Source of the DNA: Methanotrichaceae archaeon
Lineage (GTDB): Archaea > Halobacteriota > Methanosarcinia > Methanotrichales > Methanotrichaceae
DNA: 64,000 nucleotides
Direction of reading: 5' to 3'
NCBI GenBank assembly: GCA_963803145.1
Contig: CAWDLW010000015.1
Coordinates: 361,733 to 425,732 of the forward strand
Shown here one piece after another: positions 1 to 13,036 of the stretch. The position numbers and the translations under genes were made by a program. The notes under the pieces are model-generated. The model was not told the DNA's origin. It worked only from the letters and a program-made list of their open reading frames with translations, and did not search any database. The first letter of the stretch is position 1. The number at the start of each line of letters is the position of its first letter.

Positions 1-429
1 GACCCCTTTGCCTCTAATAAAGTCACAAGTGTCTTCTTTTGCACCGTCAAGACTTATTTGTATATTATCTATTTTACTTTTTTTAAGCTTGGTGACAATA
101 GTCTCGTCTATTAAAGTGCCGTTGCTCAATATATTTTTTCTTATTTCTGGAAATTTTTGGTTACAATAGTCCAATAAATTGAAGAACTCATCCCCAAGAA
201 TAAATGGCTCTCCTCCTGTAAAGGCAATCTTCGGAACTTTTTTTATTTTTTTACAGAATTTTGCGAAATCTGATATTATCTTTTTTTTCCGATCAAAATT
301 AGTTTCTGTTCCTATATATTCTAAATTCTGATAACAATGTTTACACTTAAGATTACATTTATCAGTAAGATGCCATTGTAAGATAAATGCCTGTTGAAAC
401 TGGTTTTGCTTTTCAAAATTATGGTTCAT
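1..429 (-). CDS. Radical SAM protein, PqqE/SkfB-like peptide-maturase type (5' part; runs off the window)
   Basis: Not in ORF track. Manual translation from ATG at 429 (GGTGA RBS upstream): MNHNFEKQNQFQQAFILQWHLTDKCNLKCKHCYQ...IAFTGGEPF...ILSNGTLID...IQISLDGAKEDTCDFIRGKGV; CxxxCxxC, GGEP and SLDG motifs. Confidence 0.93.
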   Translation of the reverse strand, partial: MNHNFEKQNQFQQAFILQWHLTDKCNLKCKHCYQNLEYIGTETNFDRKKKIISDFAKFCKKIKKVPKIAFTGGEPFILGDEFFNLLDYCNQKFPEIRKNILSNGTLIDETIVTKLKKSKIDNIQISLDGAKEDTCDFIRGKGV

Positions 430-889: not shown

Positions 890-1700
890 TTTGATCCATA
901 TCTATGCAGTTTCCGCTTTTGCCACGAATATCCAGCCTTTTCAAGTTATCTCAATATCGATCGCGCTCGCTTCTTCAAGACTCTTTCGCAAATTGCTTCA
1001 GTTCCTATTATCATGATAAGGCTCACCTTTATTGAGGACAAAATAGATATCGATCAGTATACGATGCGCTATGGCAACAAGAGCCCTTATTTGCCACTCC
1101 TTCTGGCAATATTGTCGTAGCAGTGGATTCAACCTGCGTAAAGGTCACGAGAAAGGAGAATAGGTAGGAGAGAAACATGGTACTGAGCCCAGAGGTTAGA
1201 TCAAGTTACATATCGCTGTTGATATTGAGACGAAGAAACCAATATCTTTCGAGATCACTGATGAGAGAACGCCTGACGTAAGATGGTCAGGCCTCAACTG
1301 AATGGCGTATTGATGAAGGATTCTATAATGGATACTGGCTATGATACTGAAGTCGTATTTAAATTTATAAAGGAGTGACATTGGCTAATATCAACGTCAG
1401 AAAGAATGCTATTGTTAAGGCGGGTACTGAGATGGCTGAGTCAGTTCTGGAATTAAAGAAATATGGATATGGTAGCTGGAAAAAGATTCAAAAATATAGC
1501 AAGAGATGGGCAGCAGAAAGCTTCTTTTCTGTGATCAAAAGAATCTTTGGAAAAACTGTTAGATCTAACTCTTTAGAAGACATGATAATGTAAGTAGCAG
1601 GCGGATAGCGCCTTTTAATATAATATTATCATGGTTAGATATTGAAATTTATTCATTAAATACATTATCGTATATCAATAATTATTCAATTATCCAACAC
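890..1700 (+). mobile_element. IS5-family transposase relic with stops and frameshifts
   Basis: Fragments IVVAVDSTCVKVT, IKLHIAVDIETKK, YSKRWAAESFFSVIKRIFG; boundaries approximate. Confidence 0.75.
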
Positions 1701-1815: not shown

Positions 1816-1917
1816 ATGAAATATGAAAAACCTGAAATCACGGAGCTAGAACTAAATGACGAAATAGATGATGATGAAATAAGCATAAATTGCGAAGGGT
1901 GCGGATGTGGAACTTAG
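1816..1917 (+). CDS. Putative RiPP precursor peptide, 33 aa: MKYEKPEITELELNDEIDDDEISINCEGCGCGT
   Basis: Below ORF-track cutoff; GGAG RBS upstream; YxxP leader motif, acidic linker, Cys/Gly-rich C-terminus; just upstream of a PqqD/RRE gene. Confidence 0.8.
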   Translation: MKYEKPEITELELNDEIDDDEISINCEGCGCGT

Positions 1918-2056
1918 TCAAATGGCGGCGATGCGCCCCACTGCAAGCAGCGGAGCATGCAAGGCACTGCCGCATAATTCACAGTTGGCTAACTGATCCC
2001 ACCTACGTTGGATGAGAATGCTCTTTTATCCAAGCCACACCAAGCTGTAGGGTATT
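1916..2056 (-). mobile_element. Non-autonomous IS200/IS605-type mini-element (~140 bp)
   Basis: Both ends are degenerate reverse complements of the two hairpin ends of the IS200 element at 3156-3763; no ORF inside. Confidence 0.7.
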
Positions 2057-2104
2057 ACTTTTAAAATAAAATGCGAAAAACCTGAAATTAAGGAATAGGG
2101 ACAT

Positions 2105-2356
2105 ATGGAAATTTCCAGGTCGATTAAGATGGTTAGGCGACTTGATAAAATACTACTATATTCGTCAGAGGAAGGAGATTTATTCCAGATAAATGAAATA
2201 GGCGCTTTTATTTTAGAAAAAATAAGAACGGGGAAAAATGAGAGAGAAATAGTTTTAGAACTGGAAAAAGAAACATATGAAAAAGAGGATAGAATAAAAG
2301 AGGATGTAAAAGAGTTTTTAGGAATCCTTAAAGAAAAAGGCATAATAAATGATTGA
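2105..2356 (+). CDS. PqqD family protein / RiPP recognition element (RRE)
   Basis: 83 aa; LFQINEIGAFILE...IVLELEKETYE...DVKEFLGILKEKGII pattern typical of PqqD. Confidence 0.9.
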   Translation: MEISRSIKMVRRLDKILLYSSEEGDLFQINEIGAFILEKIRTGKNEREIVLELEKETYEKEDRIKEDVKEFLGILKEKGIIND

Positions 2357-3155
2357 TAGTAGATTAATTGGTATTCTTGATAGAGATGTATTAATTCTTA
2401 TAAAAATTTTGAAGAGGATGCAAAAGGTAGGTATAGAAAATTCACGGCAAACACAAGTTGCAGGTGCATTATTGAAATTGGGTCTGGATAAAGAGGATGA
2501 ATCTCTACAAAAAGTCCTTCAGGTATCCATACAAAGAACCGAGGAAAATAAAATCTCTGATATGAGCGAAGCAATAAATTGTCTGAAATTGTTTTCCTTT
2601 TATAAAAGATGTTTTGAAACAAGTGTAACGAAACTAGTAAATATTATTGTAGATTGTTTGAATGATGATGGAGGATTGGGGAAATTCAAAGGAGATAGAA
2701 GTAGAATTCCCATTTGTTGGAGTTTATTAGAATCTTTTTACTACCTCAACAAGGAGGAAGATAATAATATTGTAGAAATTATTAATTGCATGGAAAGAGA
2801 GTGGTCGAATGATATGAAATTCGGTGGATTAAGCTATAAATGTGCTGGAATACTAATTGCAGCCAATTACTATCCCCTATTTGATAATGAATTTATTGAG
2901 AAATCATTGAATTGGTTAATAAATGATCAATCCGAAGATGGTGGATGGAGTGCCAAGAAAGGTTTTTCTGTTGGTTCAGTTCCGTCTTATACTGGATTAG
3001 CATTGCGGGCACTAACAAACTATGGAAAAAGCGATGAAGTTGAAAATACAATTTCACATGGAATAGGTTGGCTAATAGCAACAAGGCAAAGGGGTTTATG
3101 GAAAGAACATCCGATAGAAAGAGCATTAATAGAAGTAGATTTGTTTTTATTTTAA
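2349..3155 (+). CDS. Prenyltransferase/squalene-oxidase repeat (alpha/alpha toroid) protein
   Basis: QW-type repeats LNDDGGLG and WLINDQSEDGGW, TGLALRAL, GIGWLIA; start overlaps the PqqD stop. Confidence 0.8.
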   Translation: MIDSRLIGILDRDVLILIKILKRMQKVGIENSRQTQVAGALLKLGLDKEDESLQKVLQVSIQRTEENKISDMSEAINCLKLFSFYKRCFETSVTKLVNIIVDCLNDDGGLGKFKGDRSRIPICWSLLESFYYLNKEEDNNIVEIINCMEREWSNDMKFGGLSYKCAGILIAANYYPLFDNEFIEKSLNWLINDQSEDGGWSAKKGFSVGSVPSYTGLALRALTNYGKSDEVENTISHGIGWLIATRQRGLWKEHPIERALIEVDLFLF

Positions 3156-3763
3156 CGAATACCCCACAGCTTGCTGTGGGGATGGCAAACTAACAGGGGA
3201 TTAATAAGGTATTTAGTTCTAGCAGGCGCTATCTGAATTAATGCTGGAATTGCGGCATGCAAGCCATTGTGTTTACAGAATCAGATATCATATGGTGCTT
3301 TGTGTAAAATATAGAAAGAAATTACTTATCGATCAGGAAAGGATAGACCTTTTTAAGAATGTATGTATTGAGATTGGTGAAAGATATTGTTTTGAATTTG
3401 ATGCTATTGGGACAGATGGAGACCATGTCCACGTTTTTGTTGGATCAGCGCCAAAATATGCGCCATCTAAGGTTATGCAAGTTATAAAAAGTATAACTGC
3501 AAGGCAAATTTTCAGAGCCTTTCCTGAAATCAGAAAACAACTTTGGGGTGGAGAGTTTTGGAGTGATGGTGGCTATATTGGTACCGTAGGTGAGGGTATA
3601 ACTGCTGAAATTATAAGAAATTATATTGAAAGGCAAGGATCGATTGAGGAGAAAGAAAGCTATAATCAAATGAAGCTGTTTGAATTTGAATAAGCGGGGC
3701 TATTGCGGCGGCGCCTCGCATGCCCCGCAGCTTGCTGCGCGGGTGCGCCGCCGCAGTTTGACT
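3156..3763 (+). mobile_element. IS200/IS605-family element (TnpA only)
   Basis: Subterminal hairpins ccccacagcttgctgtgggg (3162) and ccccgcagcttgctgcgcggg (3723) flank tnpA. Confidence 0.9.
3241..3693 (+). CDS. tnpA: IS200 Y1 (HUH) transposase
   Basis: YHMVLCVKYR, DHVHVFV (HUH), LWGGEFWSDGGY, IRNYIERQ. Confidence 0.95.
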   Translation: MLELRHASHCVYRIRYHMVLCVKYRKKLLIDQERIDLFKNVCIEIGERYCFEFDAIGTDGDHVHVFVGSAPKYAPSKVMQVIKSITARQIFRAFPEIRKQLWGGEFWSDGGYIGTVGEGITAEIIRNYIERQGSIEEKESYNQMKLFEFE

Positions 3764-3819
3764 CAATCAAATTTCATCCCAGCATAATAATAACATTTAA
3801 TACGAATTATTATTATAGT

Positions 3820-4584
3820 CTATTCAGTCTTCCACCAATCTCGATTTCCTGCAATCGCATCAGTTAGAAATTTCTTATGTCTTTCAATTTCTTCATAGAT
3901 TTCTCCATTCTTACAAATGAGGCCATGTCCTGGTACTAATATTTCGATCTTCATCTCTTTTAATTTTTCAAGCGATCGTATCCATAGTTCCCACAATTTA
4001 TGGTTTCCGAAACGCAATGTAGGTAAATATTTTGAGTAAATCAAATCGCCTACATAAATTACTCTCTCTTCAGGCATATAAACCGAAATATTAGTATCAG
4101 TATGTCCAGGCGTCAGAATTAGTTCCACTTCGATTCCACCTACACTTAATGATGTATCTTTTTCGATAAATTTATCTGGATTACAAACGATAGTCTTAGC
4201 AAAAAATTTTTCTATTTTCTTGGAGTCCTTCTGCTCTTTGAATCCTGATGAGAGTATATCGTTCATCCGGTTAATCATCGATTCCATATTCATATGTTTA
4301 TTATAAGCAATCATATTATATGCAATAATTTCGGCTCCGATTTCTTTGAAAATTGAATTGCCAAGCGTGTGATCAAAATGGAGTTCAGTATTGATCAAAT
4401 ACTTTATTTTATTCTGGGGTGCACTTACCTTAGCGTAACCTAAAATTGTTTGAGCTGATAGATAATTAAATGCGGAGTCGATAATCAATGTCTCTCCATC
4501 GCCTGTTATAAATCCGGCATTTACACTGAAACCAGTTTCATGAGCCAAACCAGTTACCGCAAAACAATGTCTACTAAGTTCCAT
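3820..4584 (-). CDS. MBL-fold metallo-hydrolase (cyclase-like)
   Basis: NTELHFDHTLGN (variant HxHxDH), TPGHT, GDL, LVPGHG. Confidence 0.9.
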   Translation of the reverse strand: MELSRHCFAVTGLAHETGFSVNAGFITGDGETLIIDSAFNYLSAQTILGYAKVSAPQNKIKYLINTELHFDHTLGNSIFKEIGAEIIAYNMIAYNKHMNMESMINRMNDILSSGFKEQKDSKKIEKFFAKTIVCNPDKFIEKDTSLSVGGIEVELILTPGHTDTNISVYMPEERVIYVGDLIYSKYLPTLRFGNHKLWELWIRSLEKLKEMKIEILVPGHGLICKNGEIYEEIERHKKFLTDAIAGNRDWWKTE

Positions 4585-5305: not shown

Positions 5306-6388
5306 TAGTTAATCATTGAGCTTATTGCCCTATAGATACATTTAATAATTAATGCGTGAAAATACATAGGCATGGGTAGAAAACCTATAATAATTAGGCA
5401 TATATCAAAGATAGACCTTGATAAATTATATAAAAAAGAGACTGATCTAAGGATTAAGGAACGGTTATTGGCAATAATACATTTATATGAAGGGAAAAAC
5501 GTATATGAGGTAGCTGATATTTTAAAAAGGGGCGAGAGGACAATAAAATATTGGTTAAGCAGATGGAATAATCAAGGCTATAATGGATTGACACCAAAGA
5601 ATAGAAATGGCAAAAAGCCAAAGATGTCTCTTGATGAATGGGATAGAGTTATTAAAGAAATTGAAGACAAAGGAATGACGATAAAAGACGTATTAAAATA
5701 TGTAAGGGATACAAGAGGTATAGATTTTTCATATAAATATGGCTGGCGAATTTTAAGAGTAGTGAAAAAAGTTAAGTATGGGAAACCATACATCAGAAAT
5801 GAAAAGAGGCCTGCAGATGCAGAAAGTTTTTTAAAAAAGGATAAAATCAGTGCTGACCACTGTTACTGATCCTGTTATAGGATTTCTTGATGAAAGCTCT
5901 TTACAACAGCGCCCTAATACACGTAGAGTCTTAAACACTCATTTAATAAATTATAAACCTGGAAAGGTTAGATCAAGAACTATTTTTGGATTTATAGCAT
6001 TAAATGGCAATGATGAGGTTATGGTTTCCAACTCCTCTAAGAAGGAAGCGTTGATGGCATTTGCTCAAAATATAAGAAATAATAATATTATGAGGCCAAT
6101 TTGTATACTTTTAGATAATGCTAGAATTCATTTGGCCAAGAAATTTAGAAAACTAGCTGAGGAAATCGATATTCACTTAATTTATAATATCCCCTATTCA
6201 CCAGATTTGAATCCTATAGAATTCGGTTGGAAGGATTTCAAAAGAGAGATCGCCAAATACACTGATTTCGATGAAGCTATTATAGCTAGCCAAGATTGCG
6301 CTTTAGAAATATTTTATTCCAAAAAGGATGGATATTCAAAGTCCTGGGTGGAGCGATTTCTTAGTGCAAAAAGCTAGGAGATTAACTA
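5306..6388 (+). mobile_element. IS630-family element (copy A1), 1083 bp, TA target duplication
   Basis: Ends TAGTTAATC...GATTAACTA flanked by TA; orfA 5372-5869 (HTH) and orfB 5850-6377 (FLDES, LDNARIH, YSPDLNPIE). Confidence 0.95.
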
Positions 6389-6935: not shown

Positions 6936-8147
6936 GTGGCTGCAATGGCTTATAAGGCATTTATCATTGGTATTAACACACTAGGCTTGAAATATTGTGA
7001 TAGAGATGCAGATCTGATGAAATATGCCCTCTCAAAACGCGGCTATAATGTAAATGTAATAAATAAAGAAGCGAAAAAGTATGATATCATGCCGAAATAT
7101 ATCGATATATTGGGAGATTGCCGAATAGTAGATACCTTAATTTTCTTTTTTTCAGGTCATGGCAAACCCATTGGGCGCGAACTTTTTTTATTTACCAAGG
7201 GAGATGGTTCGGACGAATTAAACAAGATTCCAATTAGTGAGATTTTGGGGCCTTTGGAACGGTGCGCCGCCAAAAACAAACTTGTAATCTTAGATTGTTG
7301 CCGGGCAGGAAGACTAAATGGTAGTGGTGAGTGGAATTGTCCTGAACCGGGGGATTTCTATCGCATTCTTGTTGCTGCGAATCCTCTAGAAAAGGCCAAA
7401 GAGATCGATGATTTGCGAGCAAGTTTTTTAACGCATAAAATTCATTCAGCACTTACAAATCCTCCCGAAGCTATCTTGGACAAAGGAAAAATTCGAATAA
7501 ACAACCTTTCTGATTGGCTACGTAAGCAGGCGGACTTACATAATGTGTCATCATTGATAAAAGTCCCCCGACCATATCTGATTGGAGCCGATAGGGCGGA
7601 TTTTGAGATCTGCATTCTTGAAAAGTCACTTATCGAGCCAATGGAAGGCAAAACCATAATCAATGATAGGCAATTGATTGATGAAATAAGAGAATGGAAA
7701 GTGATTCATACAAAATCGCAATCCCTTCAAGATCATCTAGCCGAAATGATTCGACATCTTCATATATCCCGATTTGAACCCTTTGGTTCAAAGGGTTTTA
7801 ATAATTCAATGCAAAGCGCGGAAAATGAATGGATACGATGCGCTTCTTATTTTAAAGAGATACTGGAGGATGTTAAGGGATTTCGCTACATTGCGGCGAA
7901 TGAGGCAGTTCTACAGTGTTTACCATACGCTACAGAACCATCTATTAAACCTATATTGGATCGGATTAGAATAGCAAAGAGCCCTGAAGACGCTTTAGAT
8001 ATCCAACGACTGATAGTCGATATTAAACAAGTTATAGATGAAATGCTTCATGTAGCTGATAAACAAATTGTCTTATTAGTTGATAAGCTAGCAATTAAAT
8101 CATCGTCCGAAACGATTGAGGCAAATCATGTCGTTACAGAAGCTTGA
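6936..8147 (+). CDS. Caspase-family (peptidase C14) protein with uncharacterised C-terminal helical domain
   Basis: AFIIGIN, FFFSGHG (catalytic His), VILDCCRAG (catalytic Cys). Confidence 0.9.
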   Translation: MAAMAYKAFIIGINTLGLKYCDRDADLMKYALSKRGYNVNVINKEAKKYDIMPKYIDILGDCRIVDTLIFFFSGHGKPIGRELFLFTKGDGSDELNKIPISEILGPLERCAAKNKLVILDCCRAGRLNGSGEWNCPEPGDFYRILVAANPLEKAKEIDDLRASFLTHKIHSALTNPPEAILDKGKIRINNLSDWLRKQADLHNVSSLIKVPRPYLIGADRADFEICILEKSLIEPMEGKTIINDRQLIDEIREWKVIHTKSQSLQDHLAEMIRHLHISRFEPFGSKGFNNSMQSAENEWIRCASYFKEILEDVKGFRYIAANEAVLQCLPYATEPSIKPILDRIRIAKSPEDALDIQRLIVDIKQVIDEMLHVADKQIVLLVDKLAIKSSSETIEANHVVTEA

Positions 8148-11100
8148 AAGTAATTATAGAAATTTTTTGAACTCATATAAATCTGAGAAACAGCTGGACA
8201 TCCTTGAAGCTAAGAATCTTCTTAATACTTTTCGACAATCTGGCGAATTTATCAGCAGCCCAGAGGAAAGAGAGATTTTATCTGTATGGTGCAGGACAAT
8301 TGCAGACATAATCTTTGAGAATACAGGGGAATATCTTCCTGTGAGAATCTTTCCTTTAGATAACATCACAATATCATCTGAACCTGCCTCGATCCCCCTC
8401 CCTCGCCAGATACCTCCACCGCCAGCTGACTTTAAAGGCCGTAAGGACGAAATCATAAATATCCTATTATGCTTCGATAAGGTAAGACCCATCATCGGTC
8501 TGCGTGGTATGGCTGGCGTTGGCAAGACTGCACTAGCACTTGTTTTGGCAGAGAGGCTAAAAGACCGTTTTCCTGATGGGAATCTCTTTCTAAACCTGCA
8601 AGGAACGACTAGTAATCCCCTTAGAGCAGCTGATGCTATGGCCCAAGTCATCCATTCGTATTACCCAACTAAACGCCTGCCAGAGAGAGAAGACGAGTTG
8701 CGTGGGCTATATCTCTCAGTTCTGTCTGACAAACGAGTACTGCTTTTATTAGACAATGCGAAGAATAGAGAGCAGGTTGAGCCGTTGTTGCCTCCTTCAA
8801 GCTGCGCCGTTTTAATCACCTCAAGAAATAAATTTTCTTTGCCAGGCTTAACGGCACGAGATCTGGATGTTTTGAGTTCTGCAGAAGCTCGTGAACTGCT
8901 CCTCGAAATCGCCGGACGGATTGGCGATCGATCTGACAATTTGGCAAATCTTTGCGGAAATCTTCCCCTGGCCCTTCGAAATGCTGCAAGCGTCTTGGCC
9001 GAGAGGGGAGACATAGATGTGGCTGATTACGAACGCTGCCTAAGTGACAAAAAGATGAGGCTAGATCTAGTATATGCTTCATTCAGTTTGACTTACGATC
9101 TTTTGTCTCCAGTGAAAAAGAAGCATTGGTGTCGTCTTTCGGTCTTTCCGCAAGACTTTGACCTAAAAGGTGGAACAGCAGTTTTGAAGATGGCTCTTGA
9201 ACCATCTGCTAAGGTATTGAGCGACTTAGTTAAATGTAGTCTCGTGGATTTTATTCGCCCCGTAGATTCCGGAGAGGGACGTTACAAGCTGCATGACTTG
9301 GCTCGCCTTTTCGCTGAATCACGCCTGGAATCCAAGGAGCGTGACGATGCTGAGCATTGCCATGCTAAGTATTACTTGATAATGCTCTCTTCTGCGGAAA
9401 CTCTCTACAATAAGGGCGGGGAAAATGTCATGGAAGGGCTGAAAATTCTCGATCGAGAATGGGCGAATGTGCAGGCCGGACAGGCATTTGCCGTAAAAAA
9501 TGCCAAAAAAAATGCGGATGCAGCTGCCCTCTGCATTGAATACGCTGATCCAGTGGGTATCCTTTCATTGCGATTGCATCCCAACGATCTAATTCACTGG
9601 CTTGAGGTTTCTTTGGATGCAGCTAAGCAATTAAAAAGATCAGCTCAAGAAGGCATCATTCTAACGAAGATAGGATATACCTACTTCCAACTGGGCAAGG
9701 TTCAAGAGGCAATCCATCTCCATGAGAAGGCACTGACTATAAGCCGCAAGATCGGTGCCAGACGAGGTGAAGGAACCGTTCTGGGAAACCTGGGACAGGC
9801 CTATGCTGCTCTGGGCGAGACACGGAAGGTCATCGAATATTCTGAACACGCGCTGGCCATCGACCGTGAAATCGGAAACAAAAAAGGGGAAGATATCCGC
9901 TTGGGCAATCTGGGCTGTGCTTATTATGATTTAGGCGAGATGCATAAGGCCATCGAGTACTACGAGCAGGCGCTGACCATCGACCACGAGATTGGAGACA
10001 GAAGGAGCGAAGGAAAGCATCTGGGCGATATGGGATTGGCTTATGCCAGTCTGGGAAAGACTCGCGAAGCCATCGAGTACTACAAGCAGGCCTTGAATAT
10101 TGCTTGCGAGCTCGGCGACCTAAGGACTAAAGGAAGACACATGGGCAATTTGGGCGGTGCTTATTACGATCTAGGCTATATTCGTAAAGCGATCGAGCAC
10201 TATGAGCAGGCGCTGGCCATCAGCCGCGAGATCGGGAACCCATGGATTGAAGGAGAAAATCTATGTAATTTAGGGAATGCCTATGCTGCCTTAGAGGATA
10301 CTAACAAGGCAATTATAGTTAATCCACGTAATTTTTACCTCATAGATACCCTTAAATAATTAATATACGATATAGCCGTTCATGGGCAGGAAACCTGTAA
10401 TTGTAAGACATATCTCGAAGGTAGAATTAGATCAATTGTATAAAGATGAGAGAAACATAAGAATTAAAGAACGGCTACTAGCGATAATACATTTATACGA
10501 AGGAAAGAATGTATATATAGTAGCTGATATTCTTAAACGAAGTGAAAAGACAATAAAGAATTGGCTAAGCGATTGGAACAAACAAGGATATGATGGATTG
10601 ATACCACAGAATAGAAACGGCAAAGAACCAATGATATCTTTTGATGAATGGGATAAAATTATCGAAGAGATTGAGGACAAAGGAATGACTATAAAAGAGG
10701 TAATAAAATATGCAAAAGACACAAGAGGCGTAGAATATTCGTATAAAGGTGGTTGGAAGATTTTAAGATCAATAAAGAAAGTCAAATATGGTAAACCATA
10801 TATTAGAAATAATAAGAGGCCTGTTAATGCAGAAAGTTTTCTAAAAAAAGGATAGATTCAGTAATAACAACAGTCAAAGAACCTATTATTGGATTCCTTG
10901 ATGAAAGCTCTTTGCAACAGCGACCTAATACACGCAGGGTTTTAAACACCCATATGCTAAATTATCAACCTGGAAAAGTTAGGTCTAGAACTGTTTTTGG
11001 GTTCATTGCATTGAATGGAAATGATGAAGTTATGGTCTCTCACTCATCCAAGAAAGAAGATTTAATGATCTTCGCCCAAAAATTGAGAAGTAACAATATT

Positions 11101-11732: not shown

Positions 11733-12220
11733 TAATATTTATCCGTAAAATGCTTTGAAGTCTCCATCAAATGATTAAATGGTAAAGTGAGATTACTCGT
11801 TAAAGTGAGACTATAGTGTTTCCTGGGACTTTTTGCCCGATAGAATAAGCAATAAACGAGCTGATCGCGGAAAAGATTAGGACATTCATGAGTCTCAGAA
11901 TAGGGCTTATGCCCGAAGTATGTAAAACGTGATTTACCATCGCAGCCATAATTAATCCTGATATAGGCAGTGAAGGCTGTGCATGAGTTGAGACAATAAG
12001 ATCTCGAGATAATTAAACTAATTGCGAATATTACGGCAAGAATCGAAATCGGCTTGGCTCCAGGATCTTGGCTCTGCAACAAACAAACCTTGTGGTTGAA
12101 TCTTGTTCGTTAGGCAGCAATAAAACAAAACTAAATTCACCATAAAGCTCACAAAGGGGACAAAACGTTCTGTAACTCTGTCCGAAGGCAACAAGACCTC
12201 TGTGGCCCTAGCTAACTCAT

Positions 12221-13036
12221 TTAAATCAATCTCTCCGCCCCAGCATACACATAAAGATTCGGGCTCCTAACGAAGCCCACCAGAGTCATCCCAATCTTTT
12301 CCGCCAGTTCCACGCCTGAGTTCATTGGCGCGCTTCTGCTCACCAATATTGGAAACCCCGAACGTGCTGCTTTGGCAACCATGACCCCCGACAGTCGTCC
12401 GCTGGTGATCAGAGCACACTTGGATAGATCTGTCCCGGAAAGAAAGGCCGCTCCTACAGTCTTGTCCACGGAGCTTGACCTGCTGACATCCTCGCAGGAG
12501 GCGATAATATTCCCTTCGCTATCGCAAATAATCGATGTGTGCGTGGCGCCAGTCCTTCGCCAGATCTTGGCTCGCTCATTGAGCTGATCCACGGCCCTTA
12601 GAAGTGCATCGACTTTTATCCTGATTTCGGAGACAACCGGCTTCAGATCCTGTAAAGATGAGCTTCCAACGCTGCAGCACTGATGCCCCTTCCAGGGTGC
12701 TGCTTTGCCGTCCCTGGTTTCACAGATCAAAGCTCCCATATCTTCCTTGAGGGAGACTATATCCTGGAAGCTTTCCACAATTCCCTCGCCGACTAGGAAG
12801 CCCACTGCCATTTCCTTAAGCTGATCCGGGAGGGCAGGGATAGCGGTTATACAGCTGCCATTGAGGATTATGTTCACGACCTCTTCCACGGCCACATCAG
12901 CATCAATCTCGCTTCTCTTCCCATCCGAGATCTCCAAACACCTTCTTGAGCGAAATGTCGGATGAGGGTCCAGATGCTCTTCCTTCCAGTGGGTTTCCGG
13001 CTCAGTTATCCTGCTCGCATGCCAGCTATCTCTCAT
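12221..13036 (-). CDS. fdhD: Formate dehydrogenase accessory sulfurtransferase
   Basis: VAVEE, AVGFLVGEGI, TGATH, EDVSR, TSGRLS, SRSAP; follows fdhA. Confidence 0.92.
   Translation of the reverse strand: MRDSWHASRITEPETHWKEEHLDPHPTFRSRRCLEISDGKRSEIDADVAVEEVVNIILNGSCITAIPALPDQLKEMAVGFLVGEGIVESFQDIVSLKEDMGALICETRDGKAAPWKGHQCCSVGSSSLQDLKPVVSEIRIKVDALLRAVDQLNERAKIWRRTGATHTSIICDSEGNIIASCEDVSRSSSVDKTVGAAFLSGTDLSKCALITSGRLSGVMVAKAARSGFPILVSRSAPMNSGVELAEKIGMTLVGFVRSPNLYVYAGAERLI

Follow-up and report, generated by a model that had tools for sequence, protein, structure and literature searches.

The stretch of a Methanotrichaceae archaeon genome analysed here over its full 64,000 nucleotides (hereafter the window; positions 361733-425732 of contig CAWDLW010000015.1) carries at 2349..3155 of the forward strand a gene for a 268-amino-acid (aa) single-domain (alpha/alpha)6 toroid, kin to the class II terpene cyclases. 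This protein belongs to a conserved four-part cassette of the type that makes ribosomally synthesized peptides carrying post-translational modifications (RiPPs), which consists of a radical S-adenosylmethionine (SAM)/SPASM enzyme, one or more short precursor peptides, a discrete PqqD-type RiPP recognition element (RRE) and the toroid as its fixed member. The explanation that we favour, with slightly better than even confidence, is that a toroid of class II terpene-cyclase descent has been recruited as an obligate part of this cassette, as the RRE-coupled partner of the radical SAM enzyme. Pathways combining a radical SAM/SPASM enzyme with an RRE are a well-known route to modified peptides, and what is new here is a terpene-cyclase-derived partner family within such a pathway. 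A literature search, which left supplements and most subscription journals uncovered, returned no description of a toroid-bearing cassette of this kind.

The toroid is a fixed member of a peptide-maturation cassette

We read twelve loci. Ten of them, designated type 1, are the window's own and those of nine metagenome contigs (L045-L053); the remaining two, designated type 2, come from genomes belonging to other families (L074 and L076). In all 12 the PqqD gene stands directly 5' of the toroid gene or is separated from it by a precursor gene only. Every type-1 locus has an overlap of 1 to 17 nt between the PqqD stop and the toroid frame, measured from the first ATG of the latter; in the type-2 loci a precursor gene lies between the PqqD and toroid genes, and the toroid gene is followed by one for an Asn-synthase-like protein. 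Nine of the loci contain a radical SAM/SPASM gene; the contigs of the remaining three (L045, L048 and L049) end before its place. The initial annotation, made from the window alone, had described a toroid start overlapping the PqqD stop and a precursor ending in CGCGT, and had proposed that the toroid is coupled to an RRE. The overlap is real and measures 8 nt, with the ATG at 2349; the precursor corresponds to the ORF (open reading frame) at 1816-1917, which ends in ...CEGCGCGT; and the coupling extends well beyond this genome, the toroid homologues being linked to a PqqD gene and to Cys-rich precursors in 12/12 loci.

The precursor gene of the window (1816..1917, forward strand) encodes a 33-aa peptide, MKYEKPEITELELNDEIDDDEISINCEGCGCGT, whose leader carries the motif YxxPxI and whose C-terminal core is of the CxxCxC form, the last residues being ...INCEGCGCGT. 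Altogether the 12 toroid loci contain 22 precursor ORFs, one to three per cassette and 27-55 aa in length, all of them with the motif Y-x-x-P-x-[L/I/F], which occupies residues 3-8 counted from a conserved Met in the 20 type-1 precursors and lies about 15 residues further in in the two of type 2. All 22 likewise end in a core of 7 to 13 residues with three or four Cys, the last Cys at -2 or -3. These cores are short (CLHCTCT, CSHCRCT, CAHCRCT), long (CYSCTCNCGT, CSSCSCSCGS), of the window type without internal Ser or Thr (CEGCGCGT, CQRCGCGD), or of the type-2 form FCVQCSSCHGC[S/R], which stands behind a GG motif. A combination of three Cys plus His, or of four Cys, as read from the core sequences, would suit tetrahedral metal binding.

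In five loci (L046, L048, L049, L051 and L052) a short core (CxHCxC plus one or two residues) is encoded beside a long one (CxSCxCxCGx), and this side-by-side occurrence suggests two products per cassette.

The PqqD-family RRE gene of the window (2105..2356, forward strand) encodes 83 aa matching Pfam PqqD with an E-value of 2.1e-13, and the top NCBIfam match of its product is the lasso PqqD chaperone (33.3 bits, cut-off 70). YxxPx[L/V/I/F/A] is the motif bound by the discrete RREs of lasso peptides, and it is known from another RiPP family too (PMC13381572; PMC12710340). The intact radical SAM orthologues of the related loci, 340-373 aa in length, combine a Radical_SAM with a SPASM domain and lack an RRE at the N-terminus. 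In three of four intact enzymes the top NCBIfam match is that of the ACGX system, TIGR04340 (178-188 bits, cut-off 400), with AhbD, NirJ2 and SbtM close behind in the ranking; they stay below every NCBIfam cut-off and therefore belong to no curated family. We also considered the cassette as an ACGX system and rejected this assignment, since the TIGR04340 cut-off was missed and none of the four precursors scanned matched an NCBIfam model. SbtM forms thio- or seleno-oxazoles at Gly-Cys motifs (PMC9204691), and a SPASM enzyme from a methanogen introduces thioethers of the ranthionine kind into a Cys-rich protein (PMC13692751); the latter paper contains no mention of prenyltransferase, squalene, terpene, PqqD or toroid. 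By analogy, SbtM-type or ranthionine-type chemistry is possible for the radical SAM enzyme of the cassette.

A direct connection between the toroid and this enzyme is provided by P0171, a metagenomic protein of 770 aa which is a natural fusion of a radical SAM/SPASM part (19-365), a linker of about 130 aa and a toroid (495-761). Its toroid part is 40-45% identical to the cassette proteins and its radical SAM/SPASM part 28-30%. The fusion argues for joint action of both proteins on a single substrate. By hhalign the linker does not resemble PqqD (probability 0.3%), and it is predicted, with low confidence, to be helical; the fold of the whole protein, predicted from a mixed alignment (pLDDT 64, pTM 0.48), is confident in the toroid part only.

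A single-domain offshoot of the class II terpene cyclases

The toroid gene is regarded as real because of 22 relatives retrieved in a search of 5.8 billion proteins, a ratio of nonsynonymous to synonymous substitutions (dN/dS) of 0.25 and a confident AlphaFold2 (AF2) model. The ratio was calculated against L045, an 84%-identical metagenomic relative, and amounts to 0.13 for PqqD and to 0.18 for a neighbouring gene of the metallo-beta-lactamase fold (MBL); therefore, all three genes have been under purifying selection in the past. In 1.84 billion proteins the family has 46 representatives at E < 1e-30, and about 70 single-domain relatives of some 270 aa were collected, the size range of family members being 268-285 aa with one domain each. 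True members occur in 2 of 392 genomes of the class and 2 of 401 of the phylum, the present genome being within both counts. A scan of genome contigs recovered no member of the family, and the partial matches that it gave in Planctomycetota and others, which cover 38 to 81 residues of the 268 in the query at 29-53% identity, belong to other genes. A protein atlas search with the toroid returned unnamed small toroid clusters only. The family is thus small and patchy in its occurrence.

Scans of the Pfam and NCBIfam libraries found no model specific for the toroid or the precursors. In Pfam the toroid matches SQHop_cyclase_C (E 4.4e-7, 29.7 bits, cut-off 26.1), and with Prenyltrans (PF00432) it reaches E 1.1e-5 and 25.5 bits, missing the cut-off of 26.5; the relatives in L046 and P0171 score 31.3 and 26.7 with the latter model. 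Its NCBIfam matches to squalene cyclase families, TIGR01787 (36.7 bits, cut-off 322.7) and TIGR01507 (21.5 bits, cut-off 431.1), are far lower than required for assignment. The AF2 model, obtained with the 22-sequence alignment, has a pLDDT of 94.2 and a pTM of 0.92 and shows twelve helices arranged as an (alpha/alpha)6 toroid.

Several comparisons place this fold next to the terpene cyclases. A PDB profile search with the toroid family matched squalene-hopene cyclase (SHC) with an E-value of 5e-19 and the beta subunits of geranylgeranyltransferase (GGTase) and farnesyltransferase (FTase) with E-values of 0.012-1.9. The best Foldseek matches were drimenyl-diphosphate synthase and SHC (E 4e-6 to 2e-5), followed in the ranking by transcobalamin and complement thioester domains. 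The VIA structural scan, independent of Foldseek and considered for its best 50 rows, gave Z-scores of 24.1 for 8paj, 23.7 for 8zg0, 23.6 for SHC (1gsz) and 21.5 for MstE, the alignments with these terpene cyclases (Z 21.5-24.1) covering 254-258 of the 268 toroid residues. Below them the scores of other (alpha/alpha)6 enzymes level off at Z 16-20, and FTase beta (2zir_B) ranks 46th (Z 16.0, root mean square deviation 4.1, 264 residues aligned). Toroids that bind ligands without catalysis were also retrieved by VIA and Foldseek: transcobalamin, intrinsic factor and haptocorrin at Z 18-19.6 and complement thioester (TED) domains at Z 16-18. No chain of LanC is among the best 50 VIA rows or the Foldseek rows listed, a statement compatible with an unlisted family. 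Moreover, an alignment of 70 toroid family sequences, on which the conservation counts given below are also based, matched 16 DxDD-bearing SHC-like proteins in hhalign with a probability of 99.9% and an E-value of 3e-31 over residues 5-268. The toroid is thus an offshoot of the domain found in class II terpene cyclases (squalene-hopene cyclase) and consists of this one domain. The alpha/alpha toroid of the squalene-cyclase/prenyltransferase superfamily seen by the initial annotation is thereby borne out by Pfam, the twelve helices of the AF2 model, Foldseek and VIA, and the comparison that it had recommended with FTase/GGTase beta, SHC and LanC puts the terpene cyclases (Z 24) nearer than FTase beta (Z 16). 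Its mention of QxxDGGW repeats was slightly generous in the plural: there is one exact copy, Q194-S-E-D-G-G-W200, but the second, N105-D-D-G-G-L-G111, is degenerate.

The toroid lacks the canonical catalytic marks of the enzymes of this fold. In the hhalign comparison the DxDD motif aligns to D71-M72-S73-E74, and the position of the central general acid is Glu in 26/70 sequences, Ser in 14 and Val in 8, with Ser also in the protein of the window; at position 74 an acidic residue occurs in 64/70. Across the 70 sequences the general acid of DxDD is thus not conserved, and we have discarded the toroid as a canonical proton-initiated cyclase. No Cys column is conserved in the same alignment either, the best being C78 (29/70) and C165 (19/70). 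Therefore, both the Asp/Cys/His zinc site of the FTase type and the Cys/Cys/His site of the LanC type are absent. A prenyltransferase alpha subunit with PPTA repeats (PF01239) was not found above cut-off in the whole genome, nor among the 51 neighbour proteins of the toroid loci. A canonical zinc prenyltransferase is ruled out by the lack of the Zn-site Cys and of this subunit. LanC was dismissed on the lack of a Cys/Cys/His site and of any LANC_like match of the toroid at E-values up to 1 in Pfam.

The residues that are conserved are of a different kind. K164 is invariant (70/70) and Y163 nearly so (69/70), followed by R33 and H254, the sole conserved His of the family (both 68/70), D116 (62/70, acidic in 68/70) and R119 (61/70); E257 is acidic in 70/70, D155 in 68/70 and E30 in 64/70. 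In the AF2 model they are placed at the N-termini of helices 2, 6, 8 and 12 or immediately ahead of them. The helices in question are rich in Ala and Gly, a trait of inner helices in barrels of this kind. In SHC and FTase the active site lies on the corresponding face, and by analogy the same may hold for the toroid.

A proposed substrate-handling or catalytic partner for the radical SAM enzyme

The 12/12 linkage, the fusion and the invariant polar ring that stands in place of all known catalytic motifs suggest that the terpene-cyclase fold has been put to a new use, either in catalysis or in the handling of substrate. We propose that the lasso-like leader of the precursor, with its YxxPx[L/I/F] motif, is bound by the RRE and that RRE and toroid, made in equal amounts from their overlapping genes, would act as a pair. 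This pair and the radical SAM/SPASM enzyme would then process the short C-terminal CxxCxC core, whose C-terminal end may enter the funnel that the inner helices of the toroid form with their N-termini and that is lined by a polar ring of R33, E74, D116, R119, D155, Y163, K164, H254 and E257. There the toroid could either present the core cysteines to the SPASM enzyme or perform acid/base tailoring on them. The cassette is small, with four genes, and candidate roles for its products, which would be triple- or quadruple-Cys peptides of 7 to 11 residues from methanogens and uncultured anaerobes are those of metal binders, cofactors or antibiotics.

The proposed arrangement combines features of several known systems. 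Like the PqqD/PqqE, MftB/MftC and ranthipeptide-type systems, the cassette combines short precursors and a radical SAM/SPASM enzyme with an RRE of the PqqD family that is a discrete protein, and the modification of residues at the extreme C-terminus, a feature of those systems, is presumed here too; to our knowledge none of them needs a toroid partner. The CrpC/CrpA system of Methanococcus voltae (PMC13692751) resembles the present one in its methanogen host and Cys-rich substrate. Lasso B1-B2 pairs have in common with our cassette the YxxPx[L/I/F] leader, the discrete PqqD-like RRE and the overlap of the RRE gene with the gene of its enzyme; unlike lasso clusters, the type-1 loci contain neither a transglutaminase-like B2 nor a lasso cyclase among the neighbour proteins scanned. 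The Asn-synthase-like protein of the type-2 loci scores 385.6 bits with asparagine synthase (cut-off 267.1) and 171.7 bits with lasso cyclase (cut-off 525); as it clears the true AsnB cut-off it is ruled out as a lasso cyclase, and on both grounds the cassette was rejected as a lasso pathway. With the class II terpene cyclases (SHC, drimenyl-diphosphate synthase, the small single-domain 8paj/8pak and MstE) the toroid shares its homologous (alpha/alpha)6 architecture and QW-type repeats, and SHC also has a Tyr at the position of Y163 in the PDB profile alignment. Unlike these enzymes, which belong to a terpenoid setting, it is a single domain with a conserved ring of Arg, Lys, His and acidic residues, has not kept the DxDD motif and resides in a peptide-maturation cassette. 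FTase and GGTase beta (PF00432) are of the same fold superfamily, with a weak Pfam match, and act on peptides with a Cys near the free C-terminus, as would hold for the substrates of the toroid; on the other hand, the toroid has no Zn ligands and no alpha subunit, and its sequence similarity to them is marginal.

Several points weigh against the recruitment of the toroid as an obligate maturation partner. Whereas the gene, its fold and homology, the conserved linkage, the fusion and the absence of the canonical catalytic residues are established, it is inferred that RRE and toroid pair and that the funnel binds the core, and so is the chemistry. RiPP systems of the radical SAM/SPASM kind otherwise manage with no partner of this sort; the charged ring may be a network of salt bridges with a structural role and not an active site. 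The genomic context covers 12 loci, with about 48 more distant single-domain relatives outside this set, P0171 is a single metagenomic prediction, present on 2 contigs, and no longer protein carrying the RRE of the cassette was found, which is weak evidence.

Four other functions were weighed, two of them reactions on cysteine. Prenylation had been the reading of the initial annotation, which envisaged eukaryote-like lipidation of the precursor Cys. FTase-type enzymes hold their zinc with Asp, Cys and His, and neither this triad nor any conserved Cys exists in the 70 sequences. Eukaryotic prenyltransferases are described as alpha/beta heterodimers in which a conserved Zn2+ activates the thiol (PMC13290415). 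With no PPTA-repeat protein above cut-off in the genome and with the terpene cyclases nearer in structure and sequence, the zinc-dependent form of the proposal is not supported. A zinc-free and alpha-subunit-free peptide S-prenyl or isoprenoid transferase, acting on the near-C-terminal core Cys with farnesyl diphosphate (FPP), geranylgeranyl diphosphate (GGPP) or an archaeal diphosphate, seems unlikely to us. Such an enzyme would use the Arg/Lys/Tyr/His ring as its diphosphate site and the acidic residues for Mg2+, and the conserved R33, R119, K164, Y163, H254 and acidic residues could indeed bind diphosphate and metal. The superfamily comprises both FTase/GGTase beta and diphosphate-using class II enzymes, drimenyl-diphosphate synthase being at the top of the Foldseek matches; the Prenyltrans matches of the window protein and L046 are in line with this, if weak, and the position of the last Cys in 22/22 precursors is reminiscent of CxC/CaaX ends. 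However, no polyprenyl synthase or isoprenoid gene occurs among the 51 neighbour proteins scanned, the family is far nearer to terpene cyclases than to prenyltransferase beta subunits, and a stand-alone lipid transferase would not need fusion to a radical SAM enzyme. On the sequence evidence, Cys prenylation by the toroid is unsupported but retains a small probability. If this improbable transferase proved true, it would be the first prokaryotic zinc-free single-subunit enzyme lipidating the near-C-terminal Cys of a ribosomal peptide, and it would do so in concert with a radical SAM/SPASM enzyme and an RRE. The CaaX-like lipidated mini-peptides that methanogens and related uncultured organisms would then produce would owe their existence to a pathway that arose independently on the scaffold of a terpene cyclase. 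LanC enzymes, too, have the alpha/alpha toroid fold and act on Cys in RiPPs, and many cores alternate Cys with Ser or Thr (e.g. CSSCSCSCGS and CLHCTCT), so that a LanC-like thia-Michael cyclase forming lanthionine-type rings after Ser/Thr phosphorylation and elimination can be imagined, with the APH-type kinases of L046 and L053 for the first of these steps. We hold this to be the least probable of the functions considered, and very improbable in itself, in view of the missing LANC_like match and Cys/Cys/His ligands, of a kinase in only 2/12 loci with no lyase in the neighbour scan, and of the window-type cores, which lack internal Ser/Thr.

The gene order and the overlap with the RRE resemble lasso B1-B2 pairs, and together with the lasso-type YxxPxL leader motif, the best match of the RRE to the lasso PqqD chaperone and the lack of a dedicated protease conserved across the 12 toroid loci, as seen in the scan of neighbour proteins, they invite the speculation that the toroid is an RRE-dependent leader peptidase, in the place of lasso B2 beside a B1 RRE. 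Nevertheless, no peptidase is known to us with this fold, no peptidase family was matched in Pfam or NCBIfam, and no Ser or Cys nucleophile is conserved, S210 being Ser in 53/70 sequences; T215 (64/70) also matches a Thr of the SHC-like repeat. The fusion partner is, besides, a radical SAM enzyme and not an RRE, and we rate this function as quite unlikely. Finally, the toroid may stand outside maturation altogether as a carrier, storage or self-protection protein for the finished Cys-rich and possibly metal-binding product. This accommodates the lack of every canonical catalytic motif, the related toroids that bind ligands without catalysis (transcobalamin, intrinsic factor, haptocorrin and the complement TED domains) and the possible metal ligands, three Cys plus His or four Cys, offered by the cores. 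It fits poorly with the translational coupling to a leader-binding RRE in 10/10 type-1 loci and with the fusion to the radical SAM maturase, which points to a role in maturation, and the near-invariance of K164, Y163, R33 and H254 at 20-30% overall identity is more typical of catalysis; we therefore consider a product binder improbable and retain recruitment of the toroid into maturation as the better explanation.

Cassette variants and accessory genes

The type-2 loci (L074 3082-12739 and L076 93-3187) have the order radical SAM/SPASM, PqqD, precursor, toroid, Asn-synthase-like amidotransferase, with a precursor of the form ...YEKP[V/L]FE...NGGRFCVQCSSCHGC[S/R]. Downstream of this cassette L074 encodes a 592-aa protein without assignment, a glycosyltransferase and an ABC (ATP-binding cassette) transporter. 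Genes for an APH-type kinase and a methyltransferase are found in L046 and L053, a GNAT gene in four toroid loci, a second radical SAM gene in two and an S66 peptidase in L052. A helical protein of about 190 aa adjoins the toroid gene in L046 (6819-7370, reverse strand), L047 (1762-2367, forward strand) and L050 (4314-4901, forward strand); these proteins are 31-37% identical to one another and match neither Pfam nor NCBIfam, and none is encoded in the window. The kinase, the methyltransferase, the GNAT protein, the second radical SAM enzyme and the helical protein, each in only 2 to 4 loci, were not accepted as core components, and these other recurrent neighbours, seen in 1 to 4 loci, are accessory at most.

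State of the cassette in this genome and neighbouring genes

The copy of the cassette in this genome is probably inactive and decayed, as judged from its sequence. The N-terminal part of the radical SAM gene (1..429, reverse strand), whose ORF starts at 429, has the CxxxCxxC motif (Radical_SAM 2e-17) and extends for 46 further codons beyond the edge of the window into L002, the genome DNA upstream of it, giving 189 aa in total (11860-12429 in the own numbering of L002). Just outside the window an IS66 transposase of 472 aa (L002 10368-11786; NF033517, 4.9e-39) splits this gene, and the 165-aa SPASM part lies beyond it at L002 9811-10308. It is because of this split that the cassette is most likely inactive here. 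Between the radical SAM and precursor genes, where relatives have no such spacer, sits the remnant of a DDE transposase (1375..1593, forward strand), with a weak DDE_Tnp_1 match below cut-off (E 0.0014). A GC-rich insert (1918..2059) takes the place of further precursor copies in the alignment with L045, which has three or more copies; the window retains one and the 5' remnant of a second precursor gene (2060..2094, forward strand), 83% identical over 35 nt to 1810-1844.

The toroid gene itself is interrupted near its 3' end by an IS200/IS605 element (3156..3745, forward strand) that is not found in L045. Its TnpA (3241-3693) matches Y1_Tnp in Pfam (2.1e-33) and NF033573 (1.1e-39), and terminal hairpin-like repeats are located at 3156-3184 and 3717-3745. 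Behind the element, at 3747..3793 on the forward strand, comes the displaced original 3' end of the gene, as shown by its alignment with that of the L045 gene. The toroid thereby loses about 12 C-terminal residues from a poorly conserved tail, its last barrel helix being intact. This insertion, the IS66 split and the replacement of precursor copies by the GC-rich insert had all escaped the initial annotation. A sequencing-run index lists no run for the locus. Counting IS66, IS200, the DDE remnant and the GC-rich insert, four mobile-element events are recorded in approximately 6 kb near the cassette.

Convergent with the toroid gene, the MBL protein is encoded at 3820..4584 on the reverse strand (Lactamase_B 3.6e-27). 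Among related loci this neighbour is found in the window and L045 only (1/10 related loci); its membership of the cassette is uncertain, and on this distribution it was ruled out as a core member. Beyond the MBL gene L045 encodes a Trypco1-domain protein. In the window, a two-ORF transposase at 5372-6377, with a helix-turn-helix part (5372-5869) and a DDE_3 part (5850-6377), has the appearance of an element of the IS630 type that is read with a frameshift. Upstream of the cassette, L002 3778-9151 contains ORFs that by eye resemble formylmethanofuran dehydrogenase subunits and polyferredoxin and are therefore consistent with a methanogen host. At 6936-10359 of the window, a caspase-domain protein (Peptidase_C14, 1.1e-10) is followed by an overlapping gene for a 747-aa NB-ARC plus TPR protein, and this arrangement looks like a STAND/caspase conflict-system pair.

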